A program made the translations under genes and the position numbers. Shown in pieces: positions 6,114 through 42,190 of a stretch of DNA of 64,000 nucleotides (the stretch's first letter is position 1; every line of letters begins with the position of its first letter). This stretch comes from Candidatus Aenigmatarchaeota archaeon (lineage in GTDB: Archaea; Aenigmatarchaeota; Aenigmatarchaeia; QMZP01): contig JADHWJ010000002.1 in the NCBI GenBank assembly GCA_016783545.1, positions 1,617-65,616 of the forward strand, given 5' to 3'. The notes under the pieces were generated by a model. The model was given only the letters and a program-made list of their open reading frames with translations, did no database searches and was not told the origin of the DNA.

Positions 6114-6813
6114 AACAGTCCTAGAAGTTCAGGATATAGTGAAGACCTATAATCAGGGTCTTCCGAATGAGATAAAAGTATTGAAAGAGGTAAGTATGAA
6201 AATAAATAAGGGTGACTTTGTTTCAATAGTGGGACCTTCTGGTTCTGGAAAGACCACACTTCTGGATATAATCGGCTGTCTGATGAGACCAACATCAGGT
6301 GGTGTGTTTGTTGATGGTGTGGATGTTAAAGAGCTTGGAGACTCAGAACTTGCAAATATCAGAGGAAACAAGATAGGTTTTGTTTTCCAGCAGTATAATC
6401 TTATTCAGACCATAACAGCGCAAGAGAATGTAGAGATTGCTCTTAGGATAATGGGAAAATCCAAGGGAGATGCAAAGAAAAGGGCAAAAGAGCTCCTAGA
6501 ACTGGTCGGTCTTGGGAAAAGGCTTAATAACAAACCCTCACAGATGTCTGGTGGTGAGCAACAAAGAGTTGCTATTGCAAGGGCATTAGCAAACAACCCT
6601 TCAATAATACTCGGAGATGAGCCAACAGGTAATCTGGATACAAAGACAGGCGAGAAAATACTGAATCTTCTTAAAAAATTAAACAATGAAAATGGTTATA
6701 CGATAGTTGTAGTAAGTCATGATCCAAATGTAACAGAATATGTTGATTATACTATACATATAAGAGATGGGGAGATAGAAAAGACCACAAATGGTACAAC
6801 AACTAATAAATAA
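6106..6813 (+). CDS. ABC transporter ATP-binding protein (LolD/MacB-like)
   Basis: GPSGSGKT, MSGGEQQRVAIARAL, DEPTGNLD. Confidence 0.95.
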   Translation: MSETVLEVQDIVKTYNQGLPNEIKVLKEVSMKINKGDFVSIVGPSGSGKTTLLDIIGCLMRPTSGGVFVDGVDVKELGDSELANIRGNKIGFVFQQYNLIQTITAQENVEIALRIMGKSKGDAKKRAKELLELVGLGKRLNNKPSQMSGGEQQRVAIARALANNPSIILGDEPTGNLDTKTGEKILNLLKKLNNENGYTIVVVSHDPNVTEYVDYTIHIRDGEIEKTTNGTTTNK

Positions 6814-6833
6814 TTTACTATCAATTGAGTGTT

Positions 6834-7976: not shown

Positions 7977-8007
7977 ATACTTCTAAACAAAATTAAAAAT
8001 AAAAAAA

Positions 8008-8514
8008 TTAAACTTCTGGATGTTCACAAGGATCTATTTTACCTTCAGGTTTGAAATACTGGCTGAACCTTTTTCTCATTTCTTCCCTTGTAAGTCCTGC
8101 TTCTTCTGCCACTTCATATGCATGGTCTAGCATTGCATCTGTGGGCATTAATGCACCTAAATCCAGATATCTGTTTGCTTCTTTAAGCTCACCTTCGCAA
8201 GCAGCCAATGCAGCTCTAGCTTTTGTAGGTTCTACATATTCTTCTGGTAGACCCATACCTAAAAGCTCTGGCATGTCTTCAGCTTTGAAAAAACAATACT
8301 GATTCATATCTTGACAACTACCTGCTCTTCTGTTTGCTGTTTCAACTACCTCTGCTACAAACTCTGCTTCTATAGCTGCTCTATCTGCTTCCCAGTCTTC
8401 GTCAGTATATGCAGAACAATCTCTTGCCATCTTAATTAATTCAGCAGCGCCTTTGTCTGTTACAATAATTTCTGTCATATTATACTCTCTTGTGTCACCA
8501 TTTAACAGTGACAA
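8008..8514 (-). CDS. Orphan acidic protein
   Basis: 168-aa ORF with a TATA box (8535-8541) directly after a conserved site. Confidence 0.65.
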   Translation of the reverse strand: MSLLNGDTREYNMTEIIVTDKGAAELIKMARDCSAYTDEDWEADRAAIEAEFVAEVVETANRRAGSCQDMNQYCFFKAEDMPELLGMGLPEEYVEPTKARAALAACEGELKEANRYLDLGALMPTDAMLDHAYEVAEEAGLTREEMRKRFSQYFKPEGKIDPCEHPEV

Positions 8515-8549
8515 TTAATACTTGGAATATGAGTATATAAAGTTTTTTC

Positions 8550-8566
8550 TCCCGTTAAGATGACAA
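8550..8566 (-). repeat. Conserved site copy TTGTCATCTTAACGGGA
   Basis: Preceded on the minus strand by a 9-bp hairpin (8570-8604) and followed by GAAAAAACTTTATA. Confidence 0.9.
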
Positions 8567-8614
8567 AATAACAGGACAGAAAGGGTCTCCCCAATTGTCC
8601 TGTTCAATCTTACC

Positions 8615-9034
8615 TTACCGCCGACAGACACCGCACACGGTTCTCCGCCCACAACGGCAAGACGATTGCCGGACCGTGCTGAGAATCTCAGCACGTAGTT
8701 TGTTCAGCTCAGCCTTGAGTTGGTCTCTGCAGACCAGCCTTTGCACGCAGGCCTTGATCTCCTCGATCTGGCACCTCATTTCCCTGAGACCAACATTGGA
8801 GCAGCCATGTGAGCATTGCCGCCTCGAACTCGGTGTGTTCACATAGTCGCTGAGAACAACCAGCGACCGTTCGACCCTGTTGAGGCGATCCAGAACCGAG
8901 CGGAGATCTGTCCTTTTGCATGATTCCTTGGGGCGGATCTTTATGACGATCTCCTCACCACCCCTTTCACAGATGTACCGCTCAGATCCGAACACTGACG
9001 AAACAGCGACCAAAAAAATCACCAAGCACTTCAT
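8615..9034 (-). CDS. Orphan secreted coiled-coil, Cys-rich protein (139 aa)
   Basis: AAAGGAGG RBS before MKCLVIFLVAVSSVFG signal peptide; C-terminal CRCGRRTVCGVCRR. Confidence 0.75.
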   Translation of the reverse strand: MKCLVIFLVAVSSVFGSERYICERGGEEIVIKIRPKESCKRTDLRSVLDRLNRVERSLVVLSDYVNTPSSRRQCSHGCSNVGLREMRCQIEEIKACVQRLVCRDQLKAELNKLRAEILSTVRQSSCRCGRRTVCGVCRR

Positions 9035-9279
9035 CGTCTTCCTCCTTTCCAAAGACTTCCCAAAGACTAAGAAACAGAAACCTTCCACATTCCTTCGATT
9101 AAGAAAAACAAATTCGCTTTGTAACTGATGTTTTGTGAGAGCTGTATAGCGTTTTACTGCAAATACGGCTAAGAATAATATTAAATGAAGAAATGATTTA
9201 TAAATGTTCTTGTGTTTGCAATATGCCGTAAAGGCTTTTTCGTGAACGTTTTTGAATAAATATAGCCCAATAAAAAGGT

Positions 9280-11160
9280 TCAAACTAGCCTGATTGCGTC
9301 CAAATTATGCGGAACAATTGTTTCAACCCTAAAGGAATTATGCATGTCTTTTGCAAGTTCCATTGATCTCTTTTTTTCACCGTGGTTAATTATGACTCTG
9401 TCTGGCTTGCTTGCAATATTCCTCACATAGCCCATTAATTGCCTTCTGCCAGAATGCCCTGTTAAACCTTCGATTGTTTCAACATTCATTTCCATTCTAA
9501 TCACTTTTGTTTTTCCACCTTCTGTTCTAACAGGAATCTCTTTCCAACCTTTCTGTATTTTTCTACCCATTGTTCCGATTCCTTGATAACCTACAAAAAC
9601 CAGTGTATTTTTCTTCTCAGACGCGAATGCCTTCAAATACTCCATAACAGGTCCTCCTGAAAGCATACCTGATGTTGATATAACAACACACGGATCTCCG
9701 GAATCTATTATATCTTTTCTGGTTTTTGGCACAACCCTGTGGAATATGTCAGAAATAAACGGATTCTTTCCATAATGAAATATATTTTTTTGAAGATGTC
9801 TTGAAAGATATTCAGGATATGCAGTATGTATGGCCGTTGCGTCCCATATCATGCCGTCTATGTAAACAGGATATTTGAAATTACTGTCAGCCAGTATACA
9901 CATGACTTCCTGTCCTCTACCAACAGCGAATGATGGTATCAGAACCTTCCCTCCATTCTCAACAGTCTTGTTTATGATGCTCATTAGATTTTCTTCAACC
10001 TGCTTTCTTGGAGGAAGTATATTATCTCTGCCACCGTAAGTTGATTCCATTATAAGAGTCTCAACCCTTTGGAAGTTCTTAAATGCGGGTTCAAAAAGCT
10101 TTGTGGGTCCAAATTTGAAGTCGCTTGTATAAACAACATTGTGCAGACCTTCACCAATATGTAAATGAACAAGAGCAGAACCAAGAAGATGGCCAGATGG
10201 CTGTAAAGTAAGCCTTGTGTCCGCAGCAACATCAGTAACCTCTCCGTAATTAAGTGCAATTGTATGTTTTATGGTTTTCTCTATTGCCTTTTTGTTATAG
10301 TAGAGCTGCTTGCCTTCTTTCTGAGCAACCTCTATATAATCCAGGCACATCAGAACAAGTAAATCCCTTACAGGTGGAGTGCAATATAATGGTCCTTTAA
10401 AGCCCTGATCATATAAAAACGGAACAGCAGCGCAATGGTCGTTGTGACTATGTGTTAAAACAACACAGTCCAGTTTTTCAAGATCAAATTCAGGAGCTTC
10501 TAAATGTGGAAGTCTGTTTGAGCCAGGGTCTATACCACAATCCATTAGTATGTTGGCATGCTTTGTCTGCAAAAGAACACTGCTCATCCCAACACCTCTT
10601 GCACCACCAAGGAAGCTAAGCCTTACCCATTCATTTCTTCTCTGTTCCTCTGTCAAAAAACTGGAACTCACTTCCTGCCCAATCTTATTGAGGAATTTCT
10701 TCCTGTAATCTATTTCAGAATGAAGAAGATTTCTAACAGCTCTTACAACTTCAGAATCTATTGCAGGCGCTCTTTCTATTTTAGGAAGCCAGAATGTGGT
10801 ATCTTTTATTTTTCTAAAAGTCTCACCTGATTTGCCTATTATAACACCTGGTTTTGAGCTCTCTATAACAACCTTTCCAAGCTCTGGTTCGAAATATATT
10901 GCCTTTATAACATCTTTGTCAGAAACAATTTTGTGTATCTCTTTTTCTGTTTTCTCAGGGTCCATCATGATACTCATGTCTGCTCTTACTTCTACTCTTT
11001 TCTTCAGGTCTCTTACAATATCCCTTACTTTGCTTTCACATGTTTTGAAAAATTCTTTATTTTTTGTGTAAAGGACTATGTTTGAGCCCTCGAATTTTAC
11101 TTCAGAAATCTTCGCATCTTTTGGAAGTTTCTTTTCCAATTCCTGTAATATGCTGTTCAT
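9280..11160 (-). CDS. fttA: Archaeal CPSF1/FttA beta-CASP ribonuclease with KH domains
   Basis: N-terminal KH region, THSHNDH, SGHLLGSA, MESTYGG, TSGMLSGGP, GHSGR; next to psmB. Confidence 0.95.
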   Translation of the reverse strand: MNSILQELEKKLPKDAKISEVKFEGSNIVLYTKNKEFFKTCESKVRDIVRDLKKRVEVRADMSIMMDPEKTEKEIHKIVSDKDVIKAIYFEPELGKVVIESSKPGVIIGKSGETFRKIKDTTFWLPKIERAPAIDSEVVRAVRNLLHSEIDYRKKFLNKIGQEVSSSFLTEEQRRNEWVRLSFLGGARGVGMSSVLLQTKHANILMDCGIDPGSNRLPHLEAPEFDLEKLDCVVLTHSHNDHCAAVPFLYDQGFKGPLYCTPPVRDLLVLMCLDYIEVAQKEGKQLYYNKKAIEKTIKHTIALNYGEVTDVAADTRLTLQPSGHLLGSALVHLHIGEGLHNVVYTSDFKFGPTKLFEPAFKNFQRVETLIMESTYGGRDNILPPRKQVEENLMSIINKTVENGGKVLIPSFAVGRGQEVMCILADSNFKYPVYIDGMIWDATAIHTAYPEYLSRHLQKNIFHYGKNPFISDIFHRVVPKTRKDIIDSGDPCVVISTSGMLSGGPVMEYLKAFASEKKNTLVFVGYQGIGTMGRKIQKGWKEIPVRTEGGKTKVIRMEMNVETIEGLTGHSGRRQLMGYVRNIASKPDRVIINHGEKKRSMELAKDMHNSFRVETIVPHNLDAIRLV

Positions 11161-11208
11161 AATATAAACCGTAATATAATAGTTACTGCTCAAATTCATT
11201 GAGTATAA

Positions 11209-11862
11209 TTAATTTAGTAATTTTTCCACTTCTTCTGGTTCAATTTCATGCATGCCTTTTGAGTCTATAACAACAATGTCAATGCCTTTCCCACCTGATG
11301 CAATATCCCTTTCTCTTGCAGACCTTATGGCCCTTGCAACCATTACTTTTGCATCTTCAACACTCATACCCTTCTTATATTTATCCTCAAGAACGCCCAA
11401 TGCATATGGGGATCCAGATCCTGTTGAAAAATATTCCTTTTCCTCTGAAAGAGAGCCGCTGGGATCAAATGAATAGAGTTTTGGTTCTTTGTCATATCCT
11501 CCAACAACCAATTGCACTATGTAAGGATAAAACCTTCTTGAATAAAGGATATTTGCAATAAGGTTTGCTGCTGAATTAACACTTATCTTCCTCTCTTCTT
11601 TGAGACTGTAAAGCTTGATCTCTGCTTTAATATATCTTTCCAGTGCCTGCGCATCACCAACAAGACCAGCTATGGTCATTGCTATATGATCATCTAGTGG
11701 TAGTATTTTTTTGACATCTTTGCTTGCTACCATGTAGCCCATTGTAGCTTTTTTATCAGCTCCCAAAACAACAGCATTGTCACAAATAACACCAATAGTA
11801 GTTGTTCCGGTTTTCCTCATTTCTTCAGCTTTCGTCTCTCTATCTTTAAAATCTTGGTACAT
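11209..11862 (-). CDS. psmB: Proteasome beta subunit
   Basis: KTG|TTTIG propeptide cleavage, ADKKAT, STGSGSPYALG. Confidence 0.96.
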   Translation of the reverse strand: MYQDFKDRETKAEEMRKTGTTTIGVICDNAVVLGADKKATMGYMVASKDVKKILPLDDHIAMTIAGLVGDAQALERYIKAEIKLYSLKEERKISVNSAANLIANILYSRRFYPYIVQLVVGGYDKEPKLYSFDPSGSLSEEKEYFSTGSGSPYALGVLEDKYKKGMSVEDAKVMVARAIRSARERDIASGGKGIDIVVIDSKGMHEIEPEEVEKLLN

Positions 11863-12061
11863 TTCCCACCTAATTAGAATTTTAATCGCACTGTATAAGC
11901 AATTTAATATTATGTTTTATTTTACATAAACTACTTTATAAAGGTTTTATTCCCATGATTTACCCACTCATTTTTATACCATCAATCCATAGTTTATTTA
12001 TAAGTAAAAAAATACAAATTTCAATAACAAGCTAGCTTTTGAAATAAGGGATTATGGTTTT

Positions 12062-13186
12062 ATGGCCAAGAAAATAACAAAAAAGAAAGAGATTGAAAAA
12101 CTTGGAAAAAAAGAAAGGATAGAGATTCTAAAGAAATTCACTAAAGAAGCTATAAAGAAATACGGTTCTGTGATAAGAAGCATTGTTCTTTTCGGTTCAA
12201 CCGCAAGAGCTGAGTTTAAAGGCGAGTCTGATATAGACATATTTGTTATTATAGATGATACAAAACAAAAGATGACACCTGAATTGAAAGAAAGGATTGA
12301 ATTCGGACTTGATGATATAGCAAAGGGAACACACAAATTACTTTCAATGCAACAGCCATATACACTGACAGAATTCTGGAGACTTGTTAGGATGGGTCAT
12401 CCTATTGTTTTTAATTTCATAAGAGAAGGGGTTCCAATATATGACAAGGATATCTTCCTTCCAATAAAAAGGCTTTTGCAGATGGGCGAGATAAGGCCTT
12501 CTGAAGAAGCGGTTGAAAAGTTTATTGAAAGAGGACCAAAGAGGATAAAAAGGGTTGAGTCAGCCAAGATGTACATGGTTGTTGAAGACTGTTATTACGC
12601 AATGCTTGAATCAGCACAGGCTGTTCTAATGTTTATGGGCAAATACCCGCCAAGACCTAATGAAACACCAAGTGTTCTTAGAAAAACAGTTGTTAAGATG
12701 AAACTTCTTGATGAAACATTTGTAAAATATCTTGAAGATGTCATTGAGATAAGGAAAAAAGTTGAGCATAAAAAACTAAAAGAGATGTCAGGAAATGATG
12801 TTGATGAATGGATTGAAAAGACAAAGAAATTTGTAAAGAAAATGAAAGGTCTTTTGGCAAAGATTGAGGTTCTAAAAAGAGAGAACATGGTTGAGAAGAG
12901 CTATGTGATAATGGAAGAGACAATAAAGACAATACTAAAGACAATGGATAAGACAGTTCCAATGGGAAGGCTAGGTCTAAATAAAAGCTTTGAAAAAGAT
13001 CTCATTAAGACAGGCCTTGTGCCTAATGTTTATTCAAAGGTCAATAATGATCTGGAGAAAATGCACAATCTTGTAAAGAAAGGAAAAATAATGGAAATCC
13101 AGAAGCAGGATATTCTTATTAACAGGGAATATGTCAGGAAATTTATCAGGGAAGCTGGCAAGCTAATGAAGCAGTATAAAAAATAG
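12062..13186 (+). CDS. Nucleotidyltransferase-HEPN fusion protein
   Basis: LFGSTAR..SDIDIFVIIDD followed by a helical HEPN-like region (YYAMLESAQA). Confidence 0.8.
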   Translation: MAKKITKKKEIEKLGKKERIEILKKFTKEAIKKYGSVIRSIVLFGSTARAEFKGESDIDIFVIIDDTKQKMTPELKERIEFGLDDIAKGTHKLLSMQQPYTLTEFWRLVRMGHPIVFNFIREGVPIYDKDIFLPIKRLLQMGEIRPSEEAVEKFIERGPKRIKRVESAKMYMVVEDCYYAMLESAQAVLMFMGKYPPRPNETPSVLRKTVVKMKLLDETFVKYLEDVIEIRKKVEHKKLKEMSGNDVDEWIEKTKKFVKKMKGLLAKIEVLKRENMVEKSYVIMEETIKTILKTMDKTVPMGRLGLNKSFEKDLIKTGLVPNVYSKVNNDLEKMHNLVKKGKIMEIQKQDILINREYVRKFIREAGKLMKQYKK

Positions 13187-13597
13187 TCATTCTCTAAGAC
13201 TTAATCCATATCTACCAAGAATTTCTTTTACAGCTCTAAGTGATGTGGGACCAAAATGTTCATAATATAACAAATCCTTTTCAGATCTTGTTAAAAGTTG
13301 AGTGATAAGCCGAATTCCTTTAGCTTCAAAAACATTTTGACACCTTGCAGGAAACGGTAGTTCATCTACATTGCGATATGTAATATCTGTACCTGGTTCA
13401 GGGGTTTCTTTTCCCATATCATCCAGGGTAGTACATAGTTCATCTGTTACCCTATCAATCTCTTTTAGATAATTTTTTAAAAATTCGCTGTTCTCTGGAT
13501 CCTCATATTGATCCATTAAGTCCCTGGCAAATGTAGAATATCTTTTGGCTGTTGCCTTAAGGTATTCATGTCTTGCTGTCCGAATTTCCTGTTTCAT
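13187..13597 (-). CDS. Protein with C-terminal bacterial RNA polymerase alpha-CTD-like domain
   Basis: VDELPFPARCQNVFEAKGIRLITQLLTRSEKDLLYYEHFGPTSLRAVKEILGRYGLSL follows the RNA_pol_A_CTD pattern. Confidence 0.8.
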   Translation of the reverse strand: MKQEIRTARHEYLKATAKRYSTFARDLMDQYEDPENSEFLKNYLKEIDRVTDELCTTLDDMGKETPEPGTDITYRNVDELPFPARCQNVFEAKGIRLITQLLTRSEKDLLYYEHFGPTSLRAVKEILGRYGLSLRE

Positions 13598-13632
13598 ATA
13601 ATAAGATAAAATAACAGTTTATAAACACTTTA

Positions 13633-13649
13633 TCCCTTTAAAATGACAA
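13633..13649 (-). repeat. Conserved site copy TTGTCATTTTAAAGGGA
   Basis: Preceded by hairpin 13656-13688 and CTTTATA; followed by a TATA box. Confidence 0.9.
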
Positions 13650-13702
13650 TATAAAGAAGCCCTGTAAGATTGCTCAAACAGGGACTTCGTTGAGCCAACC
13701 TT

Positions 13703-13996
13703 TCAAAAAAGTAGGCTGACACTCAACAGGAGCGCTGCCAGATTGGCCACAGGTAATCCTGTTGTTACTGTCAAGAAAATCGTGTTGGCTAGGAAATTCA
13801 GTGATACTGTGTGCATCACCGGCCTCCACCAAAGATCCGCGTTGTGTGTGAAGAATTGCGAACCCAGGATGTTGCAGAGGACAATGATAATACAGTACGA
13901 AACAACAATATTGTCCACCTTCTTTTTTGCCCTTGAATAATCTATGACTATGAAGGCAAGGGACAGTACGCTTAACACTAGCCATCTAACATCCAT
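13703..13996 (-). CDS. Orphan small multi-pass membrane protein (97 aa)
   Basis: AAGGAG RBS before MDVRWLVLSVLSLAF; three hydrophobic segments. Confidence 0.7.
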   Translation of the reverse strand: MDVRWLVLSVLSLAFIVIDYSRAKKKVDNIVVSYCIIIVLCNILGSQFFTHNADLWWRPVMHTVSLNFLANTIFLTVTTGLPVANLAALLLSVSLLF

Positions 13997-14185
13997 CGGT
14001 TTCTCCTTGAAAGACTCTTTCCAGACAACTGATTCCAGTTTCTGTTCAGAGCAAGACCTAAGAAAAACAGTTCTCTCAGTACGTGTGTTGGAAAAAAACA
14101 AAACAACATTTTACAGCCTGTTTTGCTAAAACAATATTACTATTCGTAATGTTATTTATAAGTGTTTTTTTAACAAGAAATTGAG

Positions 14186-14485
14186 CTATTCCTTTCTTTT
14201 TCCGCTGCCATATTTGTTATACCAGCAAAGAATTGTCCATCTGGAAACCTTTATGCCTTCATATCTTTCCAAGTGCTTTTTTGCTTCTGCAAGAGAAAAG
14301 CCCTTTTCATATAAAGAAACAGCTTTCATGATATCTTTTCTACTGAACCTCATTCTCCAATAACCATCATGCAATGTGAATTTCCTTCCGCATTTCTTGC
14401 AAAGCCTAAGTCTTTTCTTAGTCCTATCATTATACCTGTATCCCCTGAATACAATACTTTCTGAATCGCAATATGGGCACTTCAT
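14186..14485 (-). pseudogene. Zn-ribbon + HTH protein resembling an IS6/IS1-type transposase N-terminus; no DDE domain
   Basis: MKCPYCDS..CKKCGRKF, HTH ending VSRWTILCWYNKY; stop before any catalytic domain. Confidence 0.6.
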
Positions 14486-14566
14486 GCTTATCACTCTGTA
14501 CTAAAACTTTTGTTTTCAGAGCTAATAAATGTACTATTAGAGGGATATCTTCCGGCCTTATAAATA

Positions 14567-14583
14567 TCCCTTTTAATTGACAC
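14567..14583 (-). repeat. Conserved site copy GTGTCAATTAAAAGGGA
   Basis: Preceded by hairpin 14594-14615 and CTTTATA; followed by TATTTATAAG. Confidence 0.8.
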
Positions 14584-14589
14584 TATAAA

Positions 14590-15740
14590 GGCAAGGTGGT
14601 CGGCGTAGGCCACCTATGGTCTGGAAATAGGATACTCTCCAAGGATCTCCGGTTCGAAGAGCCAGTTTCAGCCCCGGTACAATGAAGAGGACCGTTTGAG
14701 CGGGATCCTGATCCCAAAATACCGTCATCATTGTGTCGGGGGTTCCAGTGTCCCGTTTCGGCGCGCTCCAATAAAACATAGAGGAGCGATTGGCCGAGGA
14801 CTGTGCCGGGAGGACCCCCTGTGTTGGTGCTTACCTACCGGACCACCATTGCCCACCGAGAGCCTGTAGCCTTATCAGGGCTCGACTCCCGATAATTCCT
14901 ATTATTGGAGGCTTTTGGATTGTCTGTTTTGGGGCTACCTGAGACCACCTCATGTGGGTGGAAAGGTCTCGCCCCGTTTATGGTTCCCTCCCATTAGAAG
15001 GAGACCCTGAAGGATCTCCTGGGAGTCAAGTGCCTCCCCTTCGGTACAACTAACGCTCAGTGGGATAACTCCCCCCACCGTTCGTTACGAATCACATGAG
15101 GTGCGACCCAAGTCAGCCGAATCCGAACCTCATTTGCGTACTCCCCCTTTCGGGTAAGGTGCCCACCATGTTCTGGACGGGTTGGGTGGACACAGGTTGT
15201 CGGTTTCCGGTGCAACCGCCTTGCTAGGACTCCAGTAATCCCAGCTTTCGTGGCAGTTGGTAAGTGGTTGCCTCCGCGAGAGAGCAACCAACAATGCCTA
15301 GTGACTGGCCGAATTGGTGTTTGGCTTTATCTTTCAGTCTTCGCATAACACCCTTCTGCCACCTCGGACGCGAGGTTCAAAGTTGGATGTTAAAGCTAGG
15401 ACTTAGTCCTTGCCCTCGCAATTTGTTCTCCTTCCTTGCGTTGGCTAGTTTTGGCTCCCTTTAGAGCTCATCAGGAAAGCCAGCTTGGCCGAAGGAGATA
15501 TGCCAGTCTTTCAAGGTACGTCCTGATTTATAGAGATACGGTTTCTTGGCCAATAGCTACATAGGGTACTTCAAACGACAAAGCATGATGCAAATCATGC
15601 GTTTGACCTCCTTTCTAGCGGGGAGTAGGGCCATGAAAAAAATTTGGAGGGAGGGAGGCCGCCCGTGTGGGTCAGGCACGGACGACCTCCTGGGAGGGAG
15701 TTGGGTACGTAACCTAAGACAGAGAAAGATGTTAGTTTTC
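14590..15740 (-). ncRNA. Candidate large (~1.15 kb) structured non-coding RNA (island 4)
   Basis: GC-rich, no credible long ORF, dense hairpins; 14-bp helix 15654-15690 and helix 14999-15020 have G-U pairs only on the minus strand; CCC-GAAA-GGG and C-UUCG-G loops on minus. Confidence 0.65.
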
Positions 15741-15820
15741 TAGAAGTAGTACTAAAGAAAAAAATCATCTTCTCTGGGAGTTTGCAAAGCAAACCTTGTG
15801 AACTAATGAATATGAAATGA
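15740..15820 (-). promoter_or_regulatory. Conserved 5' leader shared with island 1, downstream of TATA box TTTAAATA (15851-15858)
   Basis: TTCATATTCA..GTTTGCTTTGCAAACTCCCAGAGAAGATGATTTTTTTCTTTAGTA versus 345-414. Confidence 0.7.
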
Positions 15821-15968
15821 TTAATGATACTTGACAATTCGCTCTTAATATTTAAATACTTATCCCATAAAAGTGGGAATTTCGTAAAGCCTCTTAAGGT
15901 TTCTTTTCCCAAGGGTTTTCTTGGGAGCAATATAAACAAAGAAGGTGGAAGCCTCTAAGAAAAGCCTT

Positions 15969-17990
15969 TTATACGAATTCTATCCTTTCAAACTTGCCTT
16001 TTTTCTCAAATTCCTTTACTGTAGAGATGAAAATAGTTGGCTTTCTCCCGCTTTCATAAGAGAATTTTGCAACTTCCTGTATGATTATGTTCTTTATGGA
16101 AGCGCTGGCGCATAAAAAATATTTGTTCTCTGAGACATCTTTTGCTATCTTGTCCCTGTCAAAACCAGTTTCTACCATAACAGAGATCTTTTTTCCACCT
16201 TCTTCAAATGTAAAGCAGTTCTTCTCTTCATTATATGTCCAGCCACTCTCAGAGAATATTGGATAGACATCATCTATGTTTATCTCCTTTTCCCCTTCTA
16301 TTCTACCAAATTGCTTCTCAAATATGCCCTGGCCAAGTTCTGTAAGATAATAATAATTTAGCTTGTTTTTCCCGACCTTTGCCTGTTTTATCTTAACCAG
16401 ACCAGAATCTATCAGGCCTCTTACATGTTTGTTAAATGTTGAGCCAGAAATCTTTACTGCTTTGTAAATCTGGGAAGTGAACGCAGCCCTGCCTTCACCC
16501 AAGACATGTAGTATATTCCAGCCCTGTTCTTCTAGTTCTTCTATCGGAATTTCGTCTGCTGGCTCCTTTTCAGACGAAGGCTCTTTTAGTCTTGCGAATA
16601 TTTCTGGAACCTGTGCTCTCATATGCTTTCTGACATCCTCATCTTTAATGGCACCTTTTCTCAATGAGTATTTTTTGAACTGGACAAGAAATGGGTCATG
16701 GAAAGCAGACATCCTCATTAGCATAAAACCATGCCCTATTGGTAGTTTTCTTAGATAGATACCCTGTTCTTCATAGTTTAGTCCTAGCATATTACTCGCA
16801 TCTAAGACATCAGACGCGTGTTTAGTATCCAGGCCCAGATTCATGTAGATATGTGTGGACGTGTTACCAAGTGCAGGATATGAAACAAGAGAAGGATGCT
16901 GGTCTATATAAATTATTCCCATACCAAGTTCCCTAATCTCTCTAAATATCAAATCCATGACTGTTTCTATACCAAGTGATGATGATTTTTCCCTATTCAA
17001 TACATGGTGCGCTTCTTCAAGTATAATAACACCCTGAAGCTCTTCCTTTTTCCCATGTATGAGAAGCCAATCTCTTATCCATTGAAGAATAATCTCTATG
17101 AAGAATGCCCTGTCATTTGCATCCAATGCATCTAGTTCTAATATGGTTATCTTTCCTTTCTGGAAAAATTCCGAGGGCTGAATACCTTCTTTGCATTTCC
17201 ATATCTCAGCAATCTCTCTGAAGCAAAGGCTTGCTAGAGGTCTTAGTGAAGTAGAAAGCCAGTTCCTTTCCCTTGATGAAAGAGACTCTCCTCCGTACCC
17301 CTCAAGCCAGCGTTTAATATCTGAAAGAATAGGATGCTGCTTCTCTTCGTGTATAGCATCCAGGCTTTTCATTATAAGATGCCTTCCGCCGCCCATAAGC
17401 ATGTACGCATGATCAAATATAGAAGAAAATTCCTTCATCCATTGGGATATCTGTATACCTTCTGGTGGTTTTAATGGATTGAATTTAAATGGTGCTGGAT
17501 CTCTTCCAATCGTATATACGTTTATGTGATCCTTTAGCTTTGTCTGTAAAAGATCCCTGTAATTTCTTTTGGAGAAATCAAATATCAGAATAGGAACATC
17601 ATTTTCGTTTATCTTATCTATAAGATCATATGCGATGTTTGTCTTTCCATAACCTGTAGAACCGAATATGCCTATGTGTGTAAGAAGCGCGTTCTTTCCT
17701 ATTTTCAGTGGATAGAGTCTTTTCTTTCCATATAGAACTTCTCCTATTTCTATATCACCAGACATTGCTATCTCTTTGTTTGGAGGTTCCATTAGAACAG
17801 AATCCCTTAGATCTTCATCAGAGAATGTAGCAGCCTTCAAAACATCAATAAGCTCAAATATTCTTTTCCTTGTGTCTTCGTCTGCCAGGAGGTATGCTCT
17901 TCCAAGTCTTGTAGCGCTTGCTTTTCCCAAGACAGGGATAAGTCTCTTTATTTCATCTGAAACCAGTCTTTCATGCATTTCTGTAACCAT
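15969..17990 (-). CDS. HerA/FtsK-like (DUF87) ATPase with C-terminal winged helix
   Basis: GIFGSTGYGKT Walker A, IILEEAHH Walker B, RELGMGIIYIDQHPS. Confidence 0.85.
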   Translation of the reverse strand: MVTEMHERLVSDEIKRLIPVLGKASATRLGRAYLLADEDTRKRIFELIDVLKAATFSDEDLRDSVLMEPPNKEIAMSGDIEIGEVLYGKKRLYPLKIGKNALLTHIGIFGSTGYGKTNIAYDLIDKINENDVPILIFDFSKRNYRDLLQTKLKDHINVYTIGRDPAPFKFNPLKPPEGIQISQWMKEFSSIFDHAYMLMGGGRHLIMKSLDAIHEEKQHPILSDIKRWLEGYGGESLSSRERNWLSTSLRPLASLCFREIAEIWKCKEGIQPSEFFQKGKITILELDALDANDRAFFIEIILQWIRDWLLIHGKKEELQGVIILEEAHHVLNREKSSSLGIETVMDLIFREIRELGMGIIYIDQHPSLVSYPALGNTSTHIYMNLGLDTKHASDVLDASNMLGLNYEEQGIYLRKLPIGHGFMLMRMSAFHDPFLVQFKKYSLRKGAIKDEDVRKHMRAQVPEIFARLKEPSSEKEPADEIPIEELEEQGWNILHVLGEGRAAFTSQIYKAVKISGSTFNKHVRGLIDSGLVKIKQAKVGKNKLNYYYLTELGQGIFEKQFGRIEGEKEINIDDVYPIFSESGWTYNEEKNCFTFEEGGKKISVMVETGFDRDKIAKDVSENKYFLCASASIKNIIIQEVAKFSYESGRKPTIFISTVKEFEKKGKFERIEFV

Positions 17991-35774: not shown

Positions 35775-36893
35775 TCACCTTTCAATACCAACAATAACCT
35801 TCTGCACATCAAAGCTTCCTGTAGCAGAGAGCTCTAATGTGTTAGAACCTATCTGTACATCATTCATTGAGAAATAAACAGTATTTACACCTTCTTTTAC
35901 AATACCTAAAGGCAATTTCTTTTCATTCAATTTTAATTCCAAAGAACCCTGCCTTTCAATATTTGTAACCTGTGCATCAATTCTTCCCCTTAGGCCAAGC
36001 CTCAGGGAATTGAAAGCCTTTGCAGAAACATCAAAATCCCTTTTCTTTGAGACTTCATCAGAAACAAGGAAAAGCTTAAGCTCAACATCTCTCATTTTCA
36101 ATGGCCTGTCTGAATTAACAGAAACAAGGTTTGGTCCAGACCTTAGTGGTGCATCTGCCAGTGTGAATTTTGCAACATCCACACCTCTTGGAACTTTTTC
36201 ATATATTGTTTTTCCATTGACTTTTACAACCACTGAAACAGCGCTTGTTGCATAAAATCTTAGGTCAGCATGCTCGAATTTCTCTATATCAGATGGCTCC
36301 AGAATCAATGGTATGATTTTTGCAGGACCATACTCAAGTTTTATCTCTATATCCTTTAGGAAATAATAATTCTCTGCCCAGAATGCAACACCAGGGCTGT
36401 CTGCATAGAGTTCAACTGTATTGCTTTGCTTTATGTATTGCTTGTCAACATACACATCAAGTTCGTCTTCTGGTTTTCCTTTGTATATCTCTTTTCCGTT
36501 CCATCTTACAGCAAAATCACCCACTCTATTGGAGCTGGTATCAACATGTGCAGTCATCCTTATATTGTTCATATCATCCATCAGCCATTCAGGGATATCT
36601 ATATCAAAACCTTCTTTGTGTGAACCAAACACACTTGATTTGAACTCTAGCTGGGGTATTGTTTTAAGTGTTTCTGCCTGTAGCTCTCCTGATACAAAAT
36701 CAGGCACTTCAACAATCTTTGATGCTATATTTGTGACTATGCCTAGTTTTCCAAAATTAAGAACAGTAATCTCTTCGATATTGCCTGTTGTGATAGGCCC
36801 TACGAATGAACCTATTAATAGAAAAGAAACTATTATTCCTAATGCAACTATGAGAAGAATAAAAAAATCATTCCAACCTTTAAGTTTTTTCAT
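35775..36893 (-). CDS. Membrane-anchored beta-rich extracellular protein
   Basis: N-terminal TM, repeated beta-sandwich-like segments. Confidence 0.7.
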   Translation of the reverse strand: MKKLKGWNDFFILLIVALGIIVSFLLIGSFVGPITTGNIEEITVLNFGKLGIVTNIASKIVEVPDFVSGELQAETLKTIPQLEFKSSVFGSHKEGFDIDIPEWLMDDMNNIRMTAHVDTSSNRVGDFAVRWNGKEIYKGKPEDELDVYVDKQYIKQSNTVELYADSPGVAFWAENYYFLKDIEIKLEYGPAKIIPLILEPSDIEKFEHADLRFYATSAVSVVVKVNGKTIYEKVPRGVDVAKFTLADAPLRSGPNLVSVNSDRPLKMRDVELKLFLVSDEVSKKRDFDVSAKAFNSLRLGLRGRIDAQVTNIERQGSLELKLNEKKLPLGIVKEGVNTVYFSMNDVQIGSNTLELSATGSFDVQKVIVGIER

Positions 36894-36936: not shown

Positions 36937-37935
36937 ATGCACGTATCTTATATCAAAAAAGAGAAAAAAGCAAGGCTCAAGGTGGAAACACCAGAAGATC
37001 TCTGGCATCTTTCAAAAGTCCTTGAGAAAGGAGATCTTATTACTGCTAAGACTCTGAGGAAGAAGACAATTAGAAGGGGAAAGGAGATAGTTGAAGGAAA
37101 AAGAGAGGCAATGACCCTGCAGATAGAGCTTGAAAAAACAGAGTATAGAAAAGAAACACATTCATTAAAGCTTCTTGGAAAGATCACTTTAGGGCCTGAA
37201 GATGTAAAATTAGGTTCCCATCATTCCATATACGTAGAACCTGGCTTATTGCTCATAGTACAAAAGGACTGGAAGAATTACCAGTTGGATAAACTAAGGA
37301 AAGCCGGTGTAAAGAAAACCCTGGTTTTTGTATGTACAATAGACAGGGATGGCGCTGATTTTGCCATATTGAAAGACAATGGTATAGAGTTCCATGGAAA
37401 GAAAAGCTTCAAAAAAAGATCCAGAGAGGAAGAGAAAAGGGATGAGTTCTACAATGAAATAATTTCTATTATGAAAGACCAGAAAACAATAATAATTGCA
37501 GGACCTGGGTTTGAAAAGGAAAACCTTTACAAATACATAAAGGAAAAAGAGCCAGAGCTTGCAAAAAGATGCTTTACTGAAAATGCTTCTGAAAGGGGGA
37601 GATCTGGAATAAGAGAGGTTCTTAGAAAATCAGGCAACAAAATACTAAAAGAGAGCAGAATAGCTGAAGAGACAATACTTGTTGATAATTTCTTTAAGGA
37701 GCTGGAAAAAGAAGGCCTTATTGTATATGGAAAAAAAGAAACAGAGAAGGCATTGGAAATGGGTGCTCTAAAGGAGCTTTTGGTCTCAGATGACAAAATA
37801 AATGAATTTGAGAATATTCTGAATAAAGCAGAGAAGATGCAGACAAAAATACACATAATTAGTGCAGAGCATGATACTGGCGAGCAATTCCTTGGTTTTG
37901 GAGGAATTGGCGGTTTTTTGAGATTTAAGCTCTAA
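36937..37935 (+). CDS. pelA: mRNA surveillance protein Pelota
   Basis: ETPEDLWHL, IIIAGPGFEK, GEQFLGFGGIGGFLRF. Confidence 0.93.
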   Translation: MHVSYIKKEKKARLKVETPEDLWHLSKVLEKGDLITAKTLRKKTIRRGKEIVEGKREAMTLQIELEKTEYRKETHSLKLLGKITLGPEDVKLGSHHSIYVEPGLLLIVQKDWKNYQLDKLRKAGVKKTLVFVCTIDRDGADFAILKDNGIEFHGKKSFKKRSREEEKRDEFYNEIISIMKDQKTIIIAGPGFEKENLYKYIKEKEPELAKRCFTENASERGRSGIREVLRKSGNKILKESRIAEETILVDNFFKELEKEGLIVYGKKETEKALEMGALKELLVSDDKINEFENILNKAEKMQTKIHIISAEHDTGEQFLGFGGIGGFLRFKL

Positions 37936-38156
37936 AATGTATTTTTAAATCAAAAAATAATGATAATATATCTGCCTCCTGAATTTTCAAAGATCCAATG
38001 GTTTTCTATAATAGATTTGAAACGTTCAAAGAGATATGCAAATCTTTGTTTGCATGTACTTTGAAAAAAATTTCAAAGAGAATAAGATCGTTTCAGCTCT
38101 ATTTCTCTATTTTTCCTGGTTTCTGATGACTTTTCACTGTCTTTGGAGGAAGAGCT

Positions 38157-38306
38157 ATGGACTTGGAGTTCTGGTTTTTCGTTATTCTTGCTATGAGTCT
38201 TATCCTCAACATCGTTCTGATTATCGTGGCTCTTGGGCAAAGGACCAGGATCACGAATCTAGAAGATGACTTGGATATCTCAGAATCACACGCAGATGAG
38301 CGGTAG
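38157..38306 (+). CDS. 49-aa single-pass membrane protein (not in ORF track)
   Basis: GGAGGA RBS; MDLEFWFFVILAMSLILNIVLIIV. Confidence 0.7.
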   Translation: MDLEFWFFVILAMSLILNIVLIIVALGQRTRITNLEDDLDISESHADER

Positions 38307-38332: not shown

Positions 38333-38488
38333 ATGGATTGGACGATCTGTTTTCTGGTCGCGAGCGTTGGTCTGAACATCGTGTTGTTGGTTGTCGTTCG
38401 TCGCAAAAACAGGGAAAATCAGGCCCTTTTGGATGAACTGGGAAGCCTGAGAACTGATCGTAGATCAACATTCGAATTCAGGAGGTGA
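38333..38488 (+). CDS. 51-aa single-pass membrane protein, paralog of 38157-38306 (not in ORF track)
   Basis: AGGAGG RBS; MDWTICFLVASVGLNIVLLVVV. Confidence 0.7.
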   Translation: MDWTICFLVASVGLNIVLLVVVRRKNRENQALLDELGSLRTDRRSTFEFRR

Positions 38489-38491
38489 ATC

Positions 38492-38674
38492 GTGGATGAC
38501 CGTGAAAATCTCAAAGAACAGATCCGCTGGAAGAACGAGCGGATAGCGACGTTGGAGGAGCGCGTGAAGGCACTCCAGGAACGAACAGAGGAGCTGGAAA
38601 CCCAGAATGCCGCATTGGGCAGAGAACTTGGGCGGCTGAGAGAGGAAAGGAGTTTGAAAGCTCTTACGAGCTGA
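38492..38674 (+). CDS. Small coiled-coil protein
   Basis: AGGAGGT RBS, GTG start, heptad repeats. Confidence 0.65.
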   Translation: MDDRENLKEQIRWKNERIATLEERVKALQERTEELETQNAALGRELGRLREERSLKALTS

Positions 38675-38684
38675 GGAGACAAAT

Positions 38685-39008
38685 ATGCATGTGAAGAAGG
38701 CAGATGTAATCGCGTTGATTGTCGGGGCCTTTGTCATCGTTGTGGTCTTTATCATATGTAACTGGGCGAATAGCTTGTTCTCGGTTTACAAGTGCAAACC
38801 CTGTATGGTGAAGGCTGTAAACGAGAGCAAGAGCAACTATAAGGAGAGAATCGGCGTTGAACTGACAGTTGTCTACGAGACCGGCGAGGAGAAGAGAGAG
38901 ACGCTCTACAAGCCGGATTGGTGGCTTCTGGACAAGAATATCCTGAAGCCGGGTGTGAAGCTTCCGCTGAAGAAGCCGAAAGCTTTCATACCGGCAAGGA
39001 CACGATAG
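38685..39008 (+). CDS. Orphan membrane-anchored protein
   Basis: GAGGAG RBS; TM VIALIVGAFVIVVVFIIC. Confidence 0.7.
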   Translation: MHVKKADVIALIVGAFVIVVVFIICNWANSLFSVYKCKPCMVKAVNESKSNYKERIGVELTVVYETGEEKRETLYKPDWWLLDKNILKPGVKLPLKKPKAFIPARTR

Positions 39009-39016
39009 GAGAGAAC

Positions 39017-39475
39017 ATGAAAAAAGTGCGCGGATTTACCCTAATTGAGTTGTTGTTCTGTGTTGCGATCCTTGCGATCTTGGTTGCTGTATTCCTACCG
39101 ATGTTCGTCAAATCAGCCAACAAAAAGCTCACAGAGAGGGCACAGGAGTTCGCAAAAAACCCGCCCATCGAGGACAATCTCCTGTTCTCCAACAAAGACG
39201 GTCGGGTGGAGATGTATACCGGTAACCTCGACATGCTGGGAATCAGCTTCAGCAGGACCAAGACAGGATATGATGCCATGATCTGTGGTAGGATGAGTGA
39301 GAGGATGAAAGACATTGTCCTCATAGTCTGGAAGACAACTGGCGAGGTCATTCTTTACCCAGACAGGAAGAAGCTGGGAGACAATGTCTATCTCTGGAAA
39401 GTTGTCTATCTTCCGAAGGTCAATATTGAGAAGATTGACGTTCCGAATGACAGCCGTTCACCTACGAAGGGGTGA
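39017..39475 (+). CDS. Bacterial-type prepilin N-terminal cleavage/methylation domain protein
   Basis: MKKVRG-FTLIELLFCVAILAILVAVFLP with Glu at +5. Confidence 0.85.
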   Translation: MKKVRGFTLIELLFCVAILAILVAVFLPMFVKSANKKLTERAQEFAKNPPIEDNLLFSNKDGRVEMYTGNLDMLGISFSRTKTGYDAMICGRMSERMKDIVLIVWKTTGEVILYPDRKKLGDNVYLWKVVYLPKVNIEKIDVPNDSRSPTKG

Positions 39476-39517
39476 ACCATGGGGATATGTGTTGGATGAC
39501 ACTAATTCCCCATTACT

Positions 39518-39569
39518 ATGTCTTATTAACGGGATATATATAAAAATAGTTATCCCTTTTAAATGACAA
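39518..39569. repeat. Two conserved sites head-to-head (39518-39534 +, 39553-39569 -)
   Basis: ATGTCTTATTAACGGGA and TTGTCATTTAAAAGGGA separated by 18 AT-rich bp. Confidence 0.85.
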
Positions 39570-41101
39570 TGTAAGTAAGTCCAGGAGGATAGGGCGGGCT
39601 ACCACTGGACTTGTTTGCTACCTTTGAATCTTCCTCCGGGCGCGTCTGGCAATCGCCTGGAGGATGATCAACCTCAGGTTTGCCCTTCGTAGCGGGTCGA
39701 ACATACCAGTCCAACCAAAGGCTTCGATGAAGTGTTCAATGGCTTGGATTTCCCTTCGTAGGTCAAAGCCCACGGCGTTCGAGACCTGTGCCTCAACCTT
39801 TTCTTCAGGGAATTTGACCCCGTTAACGGACTTGACTAGTTCTTCCGCTAAGCTTGCCTGTAGGTATTCGGTAGTTTTGGCAATCAGCCTTGCGCGCCAG
39901 TTCTCTTCCATCAGTCCTAGGGTCTGTCGGAGGTACTCATCGTACCCACACCGTGCCAGGGTGGTTCCCAGCTCGAGTAGGGCGTACTGCTTTTGCTGTC
40001 CCCTCAGTTCAGCCACAGCATCGCTGAGGGTCTGATGATTAAAATTTTCACTAGAATTCATACTTCGGAGGATGATCCGGCCCTGGACCTTACCGACAGT
40101 GGTTTGGAGGTGTTTCTGGAGACTCTCCACCGGTTTAGTGTCCTCCCCAACGAGTTCGTACATGAGTTGGACTATTCCCTGGTCCAGGACAACCAAGGAG
40201 TCGGTGTAGTCACTAGATCCATGGGTATAGGCCAGGCCAGAGAATTGGGTCAGTAGCCCATGGGCCATCTTCGCTATCCTGCCCAGTTGGATTATGACAT
40301 GGACCATCTCGATGAAGCTTTTCCGTTGGACTCTCCGGTCCCCGATTTTGAAGAGCTTCACCGTGTTCTCGTAGAGCTGTCTATTATCATGTGAGTAGAG
40401 CAATGTGAGAACCTCTACTTTGATCGCAGCGACCCTAGATATTGCCAGATCATTCTGGGGTTGCAGGTCTTTGAACATATCGATGATCGGAACGCAGTCA
40501 TTACCCATCTCGCTTATCCCAAGGACTAACCATTTCAGAGCTTCGGCCTTGGAGACTGGGTCATTGATAGCAATTTGCCTTCCAGAAACAATCAGATTAG
40601 GCCAGGCAAACTGCCAGACATCCGAACAGGCCTTGCAGACACCTGCTAGGATATTGTCAGCGCTCTTGACATCTGGCCTATCTTCAGGCAAAGATGCCAG
40701 GTCAATTCTGATCATCTCGACAAGTCGTCGGAAAAGACTCTGCATGTCGAAGGTTGACTCATACTTATCCACGATCCACTGTGCCTGACCTCTGGAGATG
40801 TTTCCATTAGACATCAGATGGGTAATCTCAGCCACCTGTTTCATCGTCGCCGGCTTGCTTTCCAGCAAGTTCTTAGGTTTCATCTTTTTCTCCTTTGACA
40901 AATACCTATTAACCAAGCGCACCCCGCCGCACGGTTGGAATAGAGGTATTTGCCCAAAGACACCTCCCAGATGAAAAAGAGGCGCCTGGCCAAAAGAAAC
41001 GACGATCCGGACCACCCGGATTTTAGTTGTTTTCTTTCCAAAAGACAGCAGAAACCAGATGAGAAAGAGTCCTTTATTTAGAAGGTTCCGCAGGTTCTCT
41101 A
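39553..41101 (-). mobile_element. GC-rich island 9 (one orphan helical gene)
   Basis: Gene, hairpin 39577-39612, site; TAGAGAAC near the 5' edge. Confidence 0.5.
39618..40883 (-). CDS. Orphan alpha-helical protein (421 aa)
   Basis: AAAGGAG RBS before MKPKNLLESKPATMKQ; long open frame. Confidence 0.75.
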   Translation of the reverse strand: MKPKNLLESKPATMKQVAEITHLMSNGNISRGQAQWIVDKYESTFDMQSLFRRLVEMIRIDLASLPEDRPDVKSADNILAGVCKACSDVWQFAWPNLIVSGRQIAINDPVSKAEALKWLVLGISEMGNDCVPIIDMFKDLQPQNDLAISRVAAIKVEVLTLLYSHDNRQLYENTVKLFKIGDRRVQRKSFIEMVHVIIQLGRIAKMAHGLLTQFSGLAYTHGSSDYTDSLVVLDQGIVQLMYELVGEDTKPVESLQKHLQTTVGKVQGRIILRSMNSSENFNHQTLSDAVAELRGQQKQYALLELGTTLARCGYDEYLRQTLGLMEENWRARLIAKTTEYLQASLAEELVKSVNGVKFPEEKVEAQVSNAVGFDLRREIQAIEHFIEAFGWTGMFDPLRRANLRLIILQAIARRARRKIQR

Positions 41102-41330: not shown

Positions 41331-41678
41331 ATGCGTGGGTTCTGGTATACTTTAGAGGCAGTACTTGCAGGCATACTTCTTATAGGCTTTCTTTTAGCTG
41401 TAAATACATTCTATCTCTCACCAAGAACCTCAGAGCCGCAGCCCTATCTTATTCTCAAAGGCCTTGATGAGCAGGGTATTTTGAGAGCATATGCTGTTGC
41501 AGATGATTATTCAGGGTTGAATTCCCAGATAGATACCGCATATAATCATTCTGTAGAAATATGCAGCACTGGTTGTGTTGGAGAAAAGTCTGAAGCAGAT
41601 AATGTTTTTGTTGGAAGGTATTTTGTTTCAGGTGAAAATAGTTATGATCCTAAAGAAGTGAGGTTGTATCTATGGTAA
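41331..41678 (+). CDS. Archaeal pilin-like protein (class III signal peptide)
   Basis: MRG-FWYTLEAVLAGILL. Confidence 0.7.
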   Translation: MRGFWYTLEAVLAGILLIGFLLAVNTFYLSPRTSEPQPYLILKGLDEQGILRAYAVADDYSGLNSQIDTAYNHSVEICSTGCVGEKSEADNVFVGRYFVSGENSYDPKEVRLYLW

Positions 41679-42190
41679 GGAAAGCTCAGTTTTTTATATT
41701 GGGTGCAGTGATACTGCTTGCGCTAATGCTTTCCTCAATGAGTTTTTACAGACCAATTGCATCTGAAACAGAAAATGTTGAATACATGGCTGAAAATATT
41801 GCGAATGAGCATGCAAATGCATTAAATCTTATACTAAAGTCCGGAACCCCATCAGAGCTTGCCACATTCACCAATTTTCTTAAAGAAAAGACTGATTTCA
41901 AAGCTGTTTGGCTTGTTTCAGAGAAGCAGGGATCCAGTTTATCAATAACAGCCGGGAACTTCCTTGGAGAAGACAAGGAAATAATAGTGGAAGTCGGCGG
42001 GAATTCGGAAACCCTTTCAGTGCCTGATTCAACAGCAGTTTCCAAAACCTTTTCGGTGAGCTCAGCAGTGAAAATAAAATGGGATAGTGAAGAAAGGACG
42101 TTTGACTGGGTTTCAGATAAAACCAACATGTTTGTGCAGATAAATATGGAAAGAGGGGAAAATCTGGTGAAAAAAGAAATCAATGTTTAA
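41672..42190 (+). CDS. Archaeal pilin-like protein (class III signal peptide)
   Basis: RKA-QFFILGAVILL. Confidence 0.7.
   Translation: MVRKAQFFILGAVILLALMLSSMSFYRPIASETENVEYMAENIANEHANALNLILKSGTPSELATFTNFLKEKTDFKAVWLVSEKQGSSLSITAGNFLGEDKEIIVEVGGNSETLSVPDSTAVSKTFSVSSAVKIKWDSEERTFDWVSDKTNMFVQINMERGENLVKKEINV

Follow-up and report, generated by a model that had tools for sequence, protein, structure and literature searches.

A bacterial-type pilin-like gene as probable cassette cargo in the chromosome of an archaeon

The gene at 39017-39475 of a 64,000-nucleotide stretch of DNA from a Candidatus Aenigmatarchaeota archaeon (the whole stretch, G000:C12:1617-65616, is here called the window) encodes a bacterial-type prepilin-like protein of 152 amino acids (aa), and is very probably foreign, pilin-like cargo of a gene cassette. 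The overall reading, which we consider likely, is that of a horizontally acquired bacterial-type pilin or pseudopilin-like gene, carried in a cassette closed by a conserved sequence box and specifying a product that the archaeal prepilin peptidase could plausibly process. The gene belongs to a known prepilin class, and its interest comes mainly from the cassette system and from cross-domain processing. The assembly comprises 886 kb in 18 contigs with a guanine-plus-cytosine (GC) content of ~36%, 70% completeness and 0.1% contamination; genomes of its relatives span 0.6-1.5 Mb, fitting a DPANN-type archaeon.

The leader of the protein reads MKKVRG/FTLIELLFCVAILAILVAVFLP (the slash marking the predicted cut), with Gly-1, Phe+1, Glu+5 and Pro+22, and the ATG lies 7 nucleotides (nt) downstream of an AGGAG Shine-Dalgarno sequence. 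The gene and its leader are placed as follows.

39017..39475, forward strand: 152-aa bacterial-type prepilin-like protein (PF07963, TIGR02532) with an orphan body
39017-39034, forward strand: leader MKKVRG of this protein, the predicted mature start being the Phe at 39035

A first-pass annotation of the window had reported an open reading frame (ORF) with a bacterial-type leader and Glu+5 at this position, and both are present: the protein passes the cut-offs of Pfam PF07963 N_methyl (33.8 bits, cut-off 21.2, E 2.1e-8) and of NCBIfam TIGR02532 IV_pilin_GFxxxE (26.3 bits, cut-off 16.3). The N_methyl match stands at E 4.9e-9 in a six-frame scan of the complete 886-kb genome, and among control genomes the model matched 8 bacterial and 0 of 4 archaeal ones. 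The prepilin motif is genuine and well above chance. When the protein is aligned with its best weak matches, Gly-1, Phe1, Thr2, Glu5, Leu6 and Pro22 are conserved, and in comparison with bacterial pilins F1, T2, E5 and L6 are invariant and P22 nearly so. Sequence matches in the PDB are exclusively to bacterial pilins and cover the helix region only. The frame behaves as coding, with GC at codon positions 1/2/3 of 0.46/0.33/0.63, compared with 0.34/0.44/0.66 for the overlapping antisense ORF. Archaeal pilin models do not match the protein, Pfam beyond N_methyl is empty at E <= 0.1, and the protein falls far under the cut-off of every full-length pilin family model in NCBIfam; the Verru_Chthon cassette protein C and D models are touched weakly, in the leader only. 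The same leader conforms to the archaeal class III rule, with Arg-2, Gly-1 and then 21 residues containing one charge.

Beyond the leader the protein stands alone. A word-indexed search of 5.8 billion clusters returned zero homologues, and HMMER against 1.8 billion representative proteins returned a 65-aa fragment of the same protein together with 34 weak matches, most of which lie within the N-terminal helix and end by residue 60, with a few reaching residues 95-128. Past about residue 60 no homologue was found among these 1.8 billion proteins, past about residue 70 nothing matched in Pfam, PHROG or NCBIfam, and tblastn of the body against phages gave no match. The identical full sequence is on record only for the 101-kb contig of this metagenome-assembled genome (MAG), and a fragment of it also occurs on one 15-kb Logan contig, a second, independent assembly. 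AlphaFold2 predicts a confident helix at residues 9-47 followed by 4-6 low-confidence strands, with a mean predicted local distance difference test score (pLDDT) of 51 from the single sequence and 59 with a 14-row alignment, the head staying below 55; Foldseek with this model gave no match in the PDB at E <= 0.001. In the ESM Atlas, residues 36-152 reached a best score of 0.89, below lead level, with clusters named 'type IV pilin' among the matches and an Atlas model pLDDT of 0.47. The predicted architecture is that of an ordinary small pilin in size and layout (a 40-residue helix, then beta strands) with a variable head that has no relatives. The suggestion of the first-pass annotation that the leader is fused to an unrecognised domain was right in that the body is an orphan and overstated the fusion, the size and layout being those of an ordinary small pilin. 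Ordinary full-length archaeal homologues, which would have spoken against a foreign origin, did not appear in any of the homologue searches.

Five closely spaced genes, among which the prepilin gene comes last, together form a cassette, hereafter cassette A, whose other parts are as follows.

38105..38149, forward strand: 5' end of cassette A, half-box CTGGTTTCTGATGACTTTTCACTGTCTTT, where GC steps up
38157..38306, forward strand: cassette gene 1 (tm1), a 49-aa single-pass membrane protein with a GGAGG Shine-Dalgarno sequence and GC at third codon positions (GC3) of 0.54; no family match
38333..38488, forward strand: cassette gene 2, a single-pass membrane protein of 51 aa that seems to be a paralogue of gene 1
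38492..38674, forward strand: cassette gene 3, a 60-aa coiled-coil protein with weak Pfam matches to DUF7310, ZapB and XhlA
38685..39008, forward strand: cassette gene 4, a 107-aa orphan with an N-terminal membrane anchor
39479..39513, forward strand: terminator-like hairpin at the end of cassette A (-22.7 kcal/mol on RNA folding, z -2.7)
39519..39537 (C12:41135), forward strand: 3' end box of cassette A, TGTCTTATTAACGGGATAT

Genes 1 and 2 share, by eye, a similar LNIVL...transmembrane segment and charged tail, and gene 3 also weakly matches a PHROG 'hemolysin' family. All five genes carry GGAGG or AGGAG Shine-Dalgarno sequences, which most native neighbours lack, and their GC3 of 0.54-0.68 (0.59 in the convergent gene described below) compares with 0.28-0.36 in the native neighbours. 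GC is 0.46-0.49 across 38-41 kb of the window against ~0.36 for the genome, which bears out the earlier placement of the gene in an island. By GC3, Shine-Dalgarno use and absence from relatives, the prepilin gene is foreign. In the AT-rich 200 nt between the neighbouring pelota gene and the start of cassette A, three copies of TTCAAAGA(GA) occur at 37982-38081; these repeats could represent a putative protein-binding site or a promoter element for the cassette.

The cassette ends in an order that recurs: stop codon, GC-rich hairpin, then a conserved 3' box, TGTCWTTTAAGMGGGATAT, with the same layout on contig C6 of this genome and in three related genomes (G013, G067 and G008). The box has ~37 copies in the genome, 17 of them with GC >= 0.43 in the upstream 1 kb, and mean GC around the copies is 0.43 upstream versus 0.37 downstream. 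Two forms of the box can be told apart, one preceded by a hairpin, ending in ...GGGATAT and found at cassette ends, the other lacking the hairpin, ending in ...GGGAGAAAAAGCTTATAAA and found in promoter-like contexts (e.g. C12:24572, C13:19101, C4:19150).

Bacterial-type prepilin genes recur as cargo of such units. The genome holds three N_methyl genes in two separate cassettes, two of them (169 and 194 aa) filling a 1.3-kb GC-rich cassette with hairpin and box on C6. The nearest relatives of the 194-aa protein are PF07963+PF07596 (DUF1559) proteins, matched over the first 30-70% only; the few relatives with a named source come from Verrucomicrobiales, Akkermansiaceae, Chlamydiae and Fimbriimonadaceae. 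The resemblance to expanded families of Planctomycetota and Verrucomicrobiota that had been noted from the wording of the leader is borne out for the 194-aa C6 protein; the 152-aa protein has no PF07596 match. In the relatives, G067 carries a classical pilin directly followed by hairpin and box and then by an archaeal MCM gene, and G008 carries a homologous pilin (34% identity, E 2e-23) in a 12.5-kb, 50%-GC island that ends in the box (G008:C5:124000-143000, ~4300-16830 of that stretch). This island, set in a 38%-GC archaeal contig, encodes FHA, pilin, EamA, acyl-CoA dehydrogenase, 3-hydroxyacyl-CoA dehydrogenase and STAS proteins. A further bacterial-type pilin cassette ending in the same box is present in G013.

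N_methyl genes occur in 4/46 further family genomes (in one case on a contig that is probably misbinned), 7/91 of the order and 18/371 of the phylum. Two of the contigs concerned are probably misbinned bacterial DNA and inflate 'bacterial' gene counts in this phylum: G060:C14, with 66% GC throughout and an N_methyl gene, and G248:C8, with 27% GC, a LacI-type regulator (by eye) and DUF1559-like genes whose N- and C-terminal parts are separate ORFs. The three N_methyl genes of G248, at 27% GC, were considered as a case of long-term archaeal retention of bacterial pilin N-termini, a reading rejected because the contig is probably bacterial and misbinned.

A second cassette, cassette B, converges on cassette A, its inverted box and hairpin lying eighteen bases past the cassette A box.

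39550..39568 (C12:41184), reverse strand: 3' end box of cassette B, TGTCATTTAAAAGGGATAA
39577..39612, reverse strand: terminator-like hairpin at the end of cassette B (-22.6 kcal/mol on RNA folding, z -2.5)
39618..41015, reverse strand: single gene of cassette B, an orphan 465-aa ORF with a likely start at Met45 (40883; 421 aa) behind an AAAGGAG Shine-Dalgarno sequence
41040..41069, reverse strand: 5' end of cassette B, half-box CTGGTTTCTGCTGTCTTTT, shared with the start of cassette A

The cassette B protein has no relatives in proteins, phages or viral contigs (IMG/VR). A start at 40883 leaves a leader of ~150 nt ahead of its gene, with a 29-nt imperfect inverted repeat at 40891-40960. Across the two cassettes, each of the six ORFs is intact and has retained its translation signals.

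The 5' ends of cassette A, cassette B and the C6 cassette bear a common half-box ending in CTGTCTTT. The element at 38105..38149 is 77% complementary over 30 nt to the cassette B end (41040-41069), and the start of the C6 cassette (G000:C6:4233) bears CACTGTCTTT, as at 38105..38149. The half-box consensus, CTGGTTTCTG[A/C]TG[A/T]CTTTT ... CTGTCTTT, resembles the left part of the 3' box and lacks its right part, AAGMGGGATAT. The core (C/G)TGTCTTT has 121 copies in the genome, of which 11 lie exactly at low-to-high GC steps just upstream of a Shine-Dalgarno sequence. These features hint at a crossover point inside the box. The 30-nt inverted repeat formed by 38105 and 41040 was considered as a pair of transposon ends and rejected, since it represents the 5' end that the two convergent cassettes have in common; a scan for transfer RNA genes as an integration site found none within the window.

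The two cassettes form a 3-kb insert inside a 101-kb contig with native genes on either side.

36937..37935, forward strand: native pelota gene (aRF1-like; Pfam eRF1_1/2/3; GC3 0.35), flanking the insertion on the left; in G023 it is syntenic with the pilin-like operon
41331..41678, forward strand: native pilin-like gene of 115 aa (pil115), MRG/FWYTLEAVLA, right flank; weak DUF7288 match (E 0.023), GC3 0.28
41672..42190, forward strand: native pilin-like gene of 172 aa (pil172), MVRKA/QFFILGAVIL, found in 42/46 other family genomes

The genes at 41331-42190 had been described as archaeal class III pilin-like, and the N-termini MRG/FWYTLEAVLA and MVRKA/QFFILGAVIL agree with this; the weak DUF7288 match on the 115-aa member is the sole Pfam support for the pair. 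Presence in 42/46 family genomes makes pil172 native, and homologues of pil115, 42-46% identical, lie beside pil172 in 5 relatives. G023 keeps the gene order p372-pelota-gap-pil115-pil172-tm128, and its gap between pelota and the pilin genes (L044:7634-8542) holds different genes, an endonuclease III-like one (by eye) and a 71-aa ORF; the gap is therefore a variable slot. The native 372-aa protein beside pelota (window 35775-36893, reverse strand) itself has a pilin-like N-terminus, MKKLKG/WNDFFILLIVALG, and occupies the same position, at 35% identity, in G023. As far as the sequence can tell, cassettes A and B are truly inside the archaeal chromosome. The nearness of the prepilin gene to native pilin genes, which the first-pass annotation had pointed out, is probably coincidental because the other N_methyl cassettes sit elsewhere: the C6 cassette between a UPF0047-like gene and an unrelated gene, that of G067 beside MCM.

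Processing in the archaeon can be weighed against its own pilus equipment. The assembly encodes four ATPases of T2SSE type, four to five T2SSF platform domains and one A24 peptidase, all at native GC; the T2SSE and T2SSF genes all lie elsewhere in the genome, and cassette A holds none. The sole A24 peptidase, on C16 (L025:3676-4515, reverse strand), is a 279-aa protein of archaeal type consisting of the peptidase domain only. In the 70%-complete assembly, neither A24_N_bact (PF06750, the PilD-type methyltransferase domain) nor bacterial pilus machinery (PilB, PilC, secretin) was found. Archaeal prepilin peptidases follow a rule of G, A or S at -1 with a charged residue at -2 (PMC4371748), and PibD accepts a wide variety of substrates and does not methylate (PMC4371748; PMC6098224). 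Glu+5 is near-universal in bacterial pilins and present in only some archaeal ones (PMC4371748; PMC6098224). A scan of N-termini in this genome gave native leaders such as KG/ITPVISIIILL, KG/FSPLIAVV, RG/FWYTLEAV, KA/QFFILGAV and KG/QLVFEFIV, and none of the genome's native pilin-like proteins matches N_methyl. Since Arg-2/Gly-1/Phe+1 agrees with the archaeal rule as well as with the genome's own leaders, we infer that the host A24 peptidase could cut the protein, and it is plausible, judging from these residues and the peptidase type, that the 152-aa precursor would be cleaved and left unmethylated.

On the reading we prefer, the gene would have been acquired horizontally, either as the last gene of a bacterial-style five-gene operon fragment or as that of a bacterial mobile element. 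The archaeal family would keep such fragments in the form of cassettes that end in a hairpin and the conserved box, and cassettes A and B would have been inserted between pelota and the native pilin-like operon. If expressed, the precursor would enter the membrane by way of its class III signal peptide and would be cut after Gly6 by the single archaeal A24 peptidase, the mature protein staying unmethylated. The variable head of ~110 aa would then be exposed, the protein either sitting at the surface by its membrane anchor or forming a minor subunit of a native pilus. These steps differ in likelihood. That the protein is made and cleaved in the archaeon is a fair prospect that falls somewhat short of probable, and its being built into the native pilus with a role in host contact is unlikely. 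The fullest version, in which the family takes up bacterial pilin genes through cassettes, cleaves their products without methylating them and inserts them into archaeal pili as exchangeable adhesive subunits, is a little more doubtful again.

The alternative that fares best is a silent passenger, recently captured bacterial DNA that is neither usefully expressed nor needed and whose ORF is intact because the capture is young; we regard it as a serious possibility, though not the probable one. The unameliorated composition (GC3 0.63 versus ~0.3), the orphan state of every cassette gene and the patchy occurrence of N_methyl genes (4/46 in the family, 7/91 in the order) all agree with it, and the miscellaneous bacterial-type cargo of G008 suggests indiscriminate capture. 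However, the six ORFs of both cassettes are intact with their translation signals, the leader fits the likely specificity of the host peptidase, and three N_methyl genes in two separate cassettes of an 886-kb assembly probably exceed the expectation for typical bacterial donors.

The first-pass annotation had suggested a foreign pilin tip or adhesin that might join the archaeal pilus, or a host mimic, and neither gains support from the sequence. Adoption as a surface protein, in which the cleaved pilin would act in a native pilus, or on the membrane, as a variable host-contact adhesin, with cassette exchange supplying the variation, is unlikely. It would accord with a leader that fits the archaeal rule (basic -2, Gly-1) and resembles native Phe+1 leaders, with a host that has pilus machinery and a peptidase, with five cassette A products that are all membrane-anchored or coiled-coil, and with pilin-type cargo that recurs in relatives. 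Yet siting beside native pilins is not repeated in the other N_methyl cassettes, the likely native major pilins lack Glu+5, and the gene shows no conservation that would point to selection.

A virus or mobile-element remnant, in which small membrane and coiled-coil genes with a pilin-like 'moron' gene would make up a phage-like fragment, appears improbable. Viral DNA is typically rich in short orphan ORFs, the 60-aa coiled-coil protein weakly matches the PHROG 'hemolysin' family and Pfam XhlA, and the prepilin leader matches at E 2.6e-6 in PHROG, phrog_3433 'pilin' (moron category) being among the families concerned. Against this, the PHROG matches span the generic leader only, the cassettes contain no hallmark viral gene, the head and the 421-aa protein have no relatives in 50,697 phage records or IMG/VR, and the ends are a box present at ~37 genome sites rather than provirus att sites. 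An artefact, whether a chimeric assembly, a binning error or a native archaeal pilin with a chance likeness to the bacterial motif, is very improbable: probably misbinned bacterial contigs with N_methyl genes do occur in MAGs of this phylum (G060:C14, G248:C8) and some archaeal pilins have Glu+5 (PMC4371748), but the 3-kb insert is flanked left and right by native genes within a 101-kb contig, has limits that coincide exactly with sequence marks recurring genome-wide, and encodes a protein of which a fragment was recovered in the independent Logan assembly, while native pilin-like proteins do not match N_methyl and archaeal pilin models do not match the 152-aa protein.

Several points weigh against a bacterial-type pilin gene that was acquired and put to use, and should be set beside the foregoing. 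The head yielded neither a confident model nor a fold match, the protein has no homologues by which purifying selection could be gauged, and both cassettes consist entirely of orphan genes, which point to no donor. Since GC contents of 55-60% are reached within the same archaeal family, high GC alone is no proof of a bacterial source. The N_methyl share, ~3 of ~80-90 island genes (a denominator estimated from ~59 kb of GC-rich DNA), could be explained by capture from a pilin-rich donor with no need for selection. The likely major native pilins (KG/ITPVISIIILL) are encoded on C17 and lack Glu+5, which gives co-assembly no obvious advantage. Across the family, genomes run from ~36% to ~57% GC (relatives including G023:C2:43000-57000), a range wide enough that a GC-rich island alone does not prove bacterial origin; cassettes could also be travelling between family members.

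Bacterial and archaeal type IV pilins share a mechanism, and no bacterial-type pilin is known to function in the pilus of an archaeon; literature searches turned up no such case. At least five bacterial-type pilin genes are found as cassette cargo in archaeal chromosomes, three in this genome and others in its relatives, and they provide a concrete substrate for asking whether bacterial pilins can be handled by the prepilin peptidase and pilus machine of an archaeon. They also add a recognisably bacterial-type gene class to a cargo that is mostly orphan, supporting a part-bacterial origin of that cargo. If such proteins did serve as exchangeable adhesive subunits, this would amount to cross-domain re-use of pilins, possibly for attaching to bacterial cells or mimicking their surface; if the gene is a mere passenger, it is a case of ordinary gene transfer whose main value is as a marker of the cassette system.

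Among known systems, the closest likeness is to bacterial type IV pilus pilins and type II secretion system pseudopilins (PilA, GspG/H, ComGC/GE), with which the 152-aa protein shares a basic leader to Gly, Phe+1, Glu+5, a hydrophobic helix of ~20 residues and Pro+22, a length of ~150 aa, a predicted long helix followed by beta strands, and scores above the PF07963 and TIGR02532 cut-offs. Unlike these, it is encoded by an archaeon, its head has no relatives, and no bacterial PilB, PilC or secretin was found in the assembly. The DUF1559/H-X9-DG proteins (PF07963+PF07596) of the Planctomycetes-Verrucomicrobia-Chlamydiae group are approached by the 194-aa C6 protein, which is 35-60% identical over the first 60-100 residues, but neither the 152-aa nor the C6 proteins match PF07596 or have the C-terminal H-X9-DG part. 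With archaeal type IV pilins (class III signal peptide, PibD/EppA, FlaFind rule) the protein has in common a basic -2, Gly-1 and an H-domain immediately after the cut site, and its host has the matching peptidase and assembly genes; in contrast to them it matches no archaeal model, is foreign in composition and is absent from relatives. As for the cassettes, the box is not attC and the 5' ends bear only its left half, unlike in integron cassettes, but as in integrons and other site-delimited arrays the units are promoter-less, operon-sized and closed by a conserved site, here with a hairpin, and they stand stacked or convergent with varied and mostly orphan cargo.

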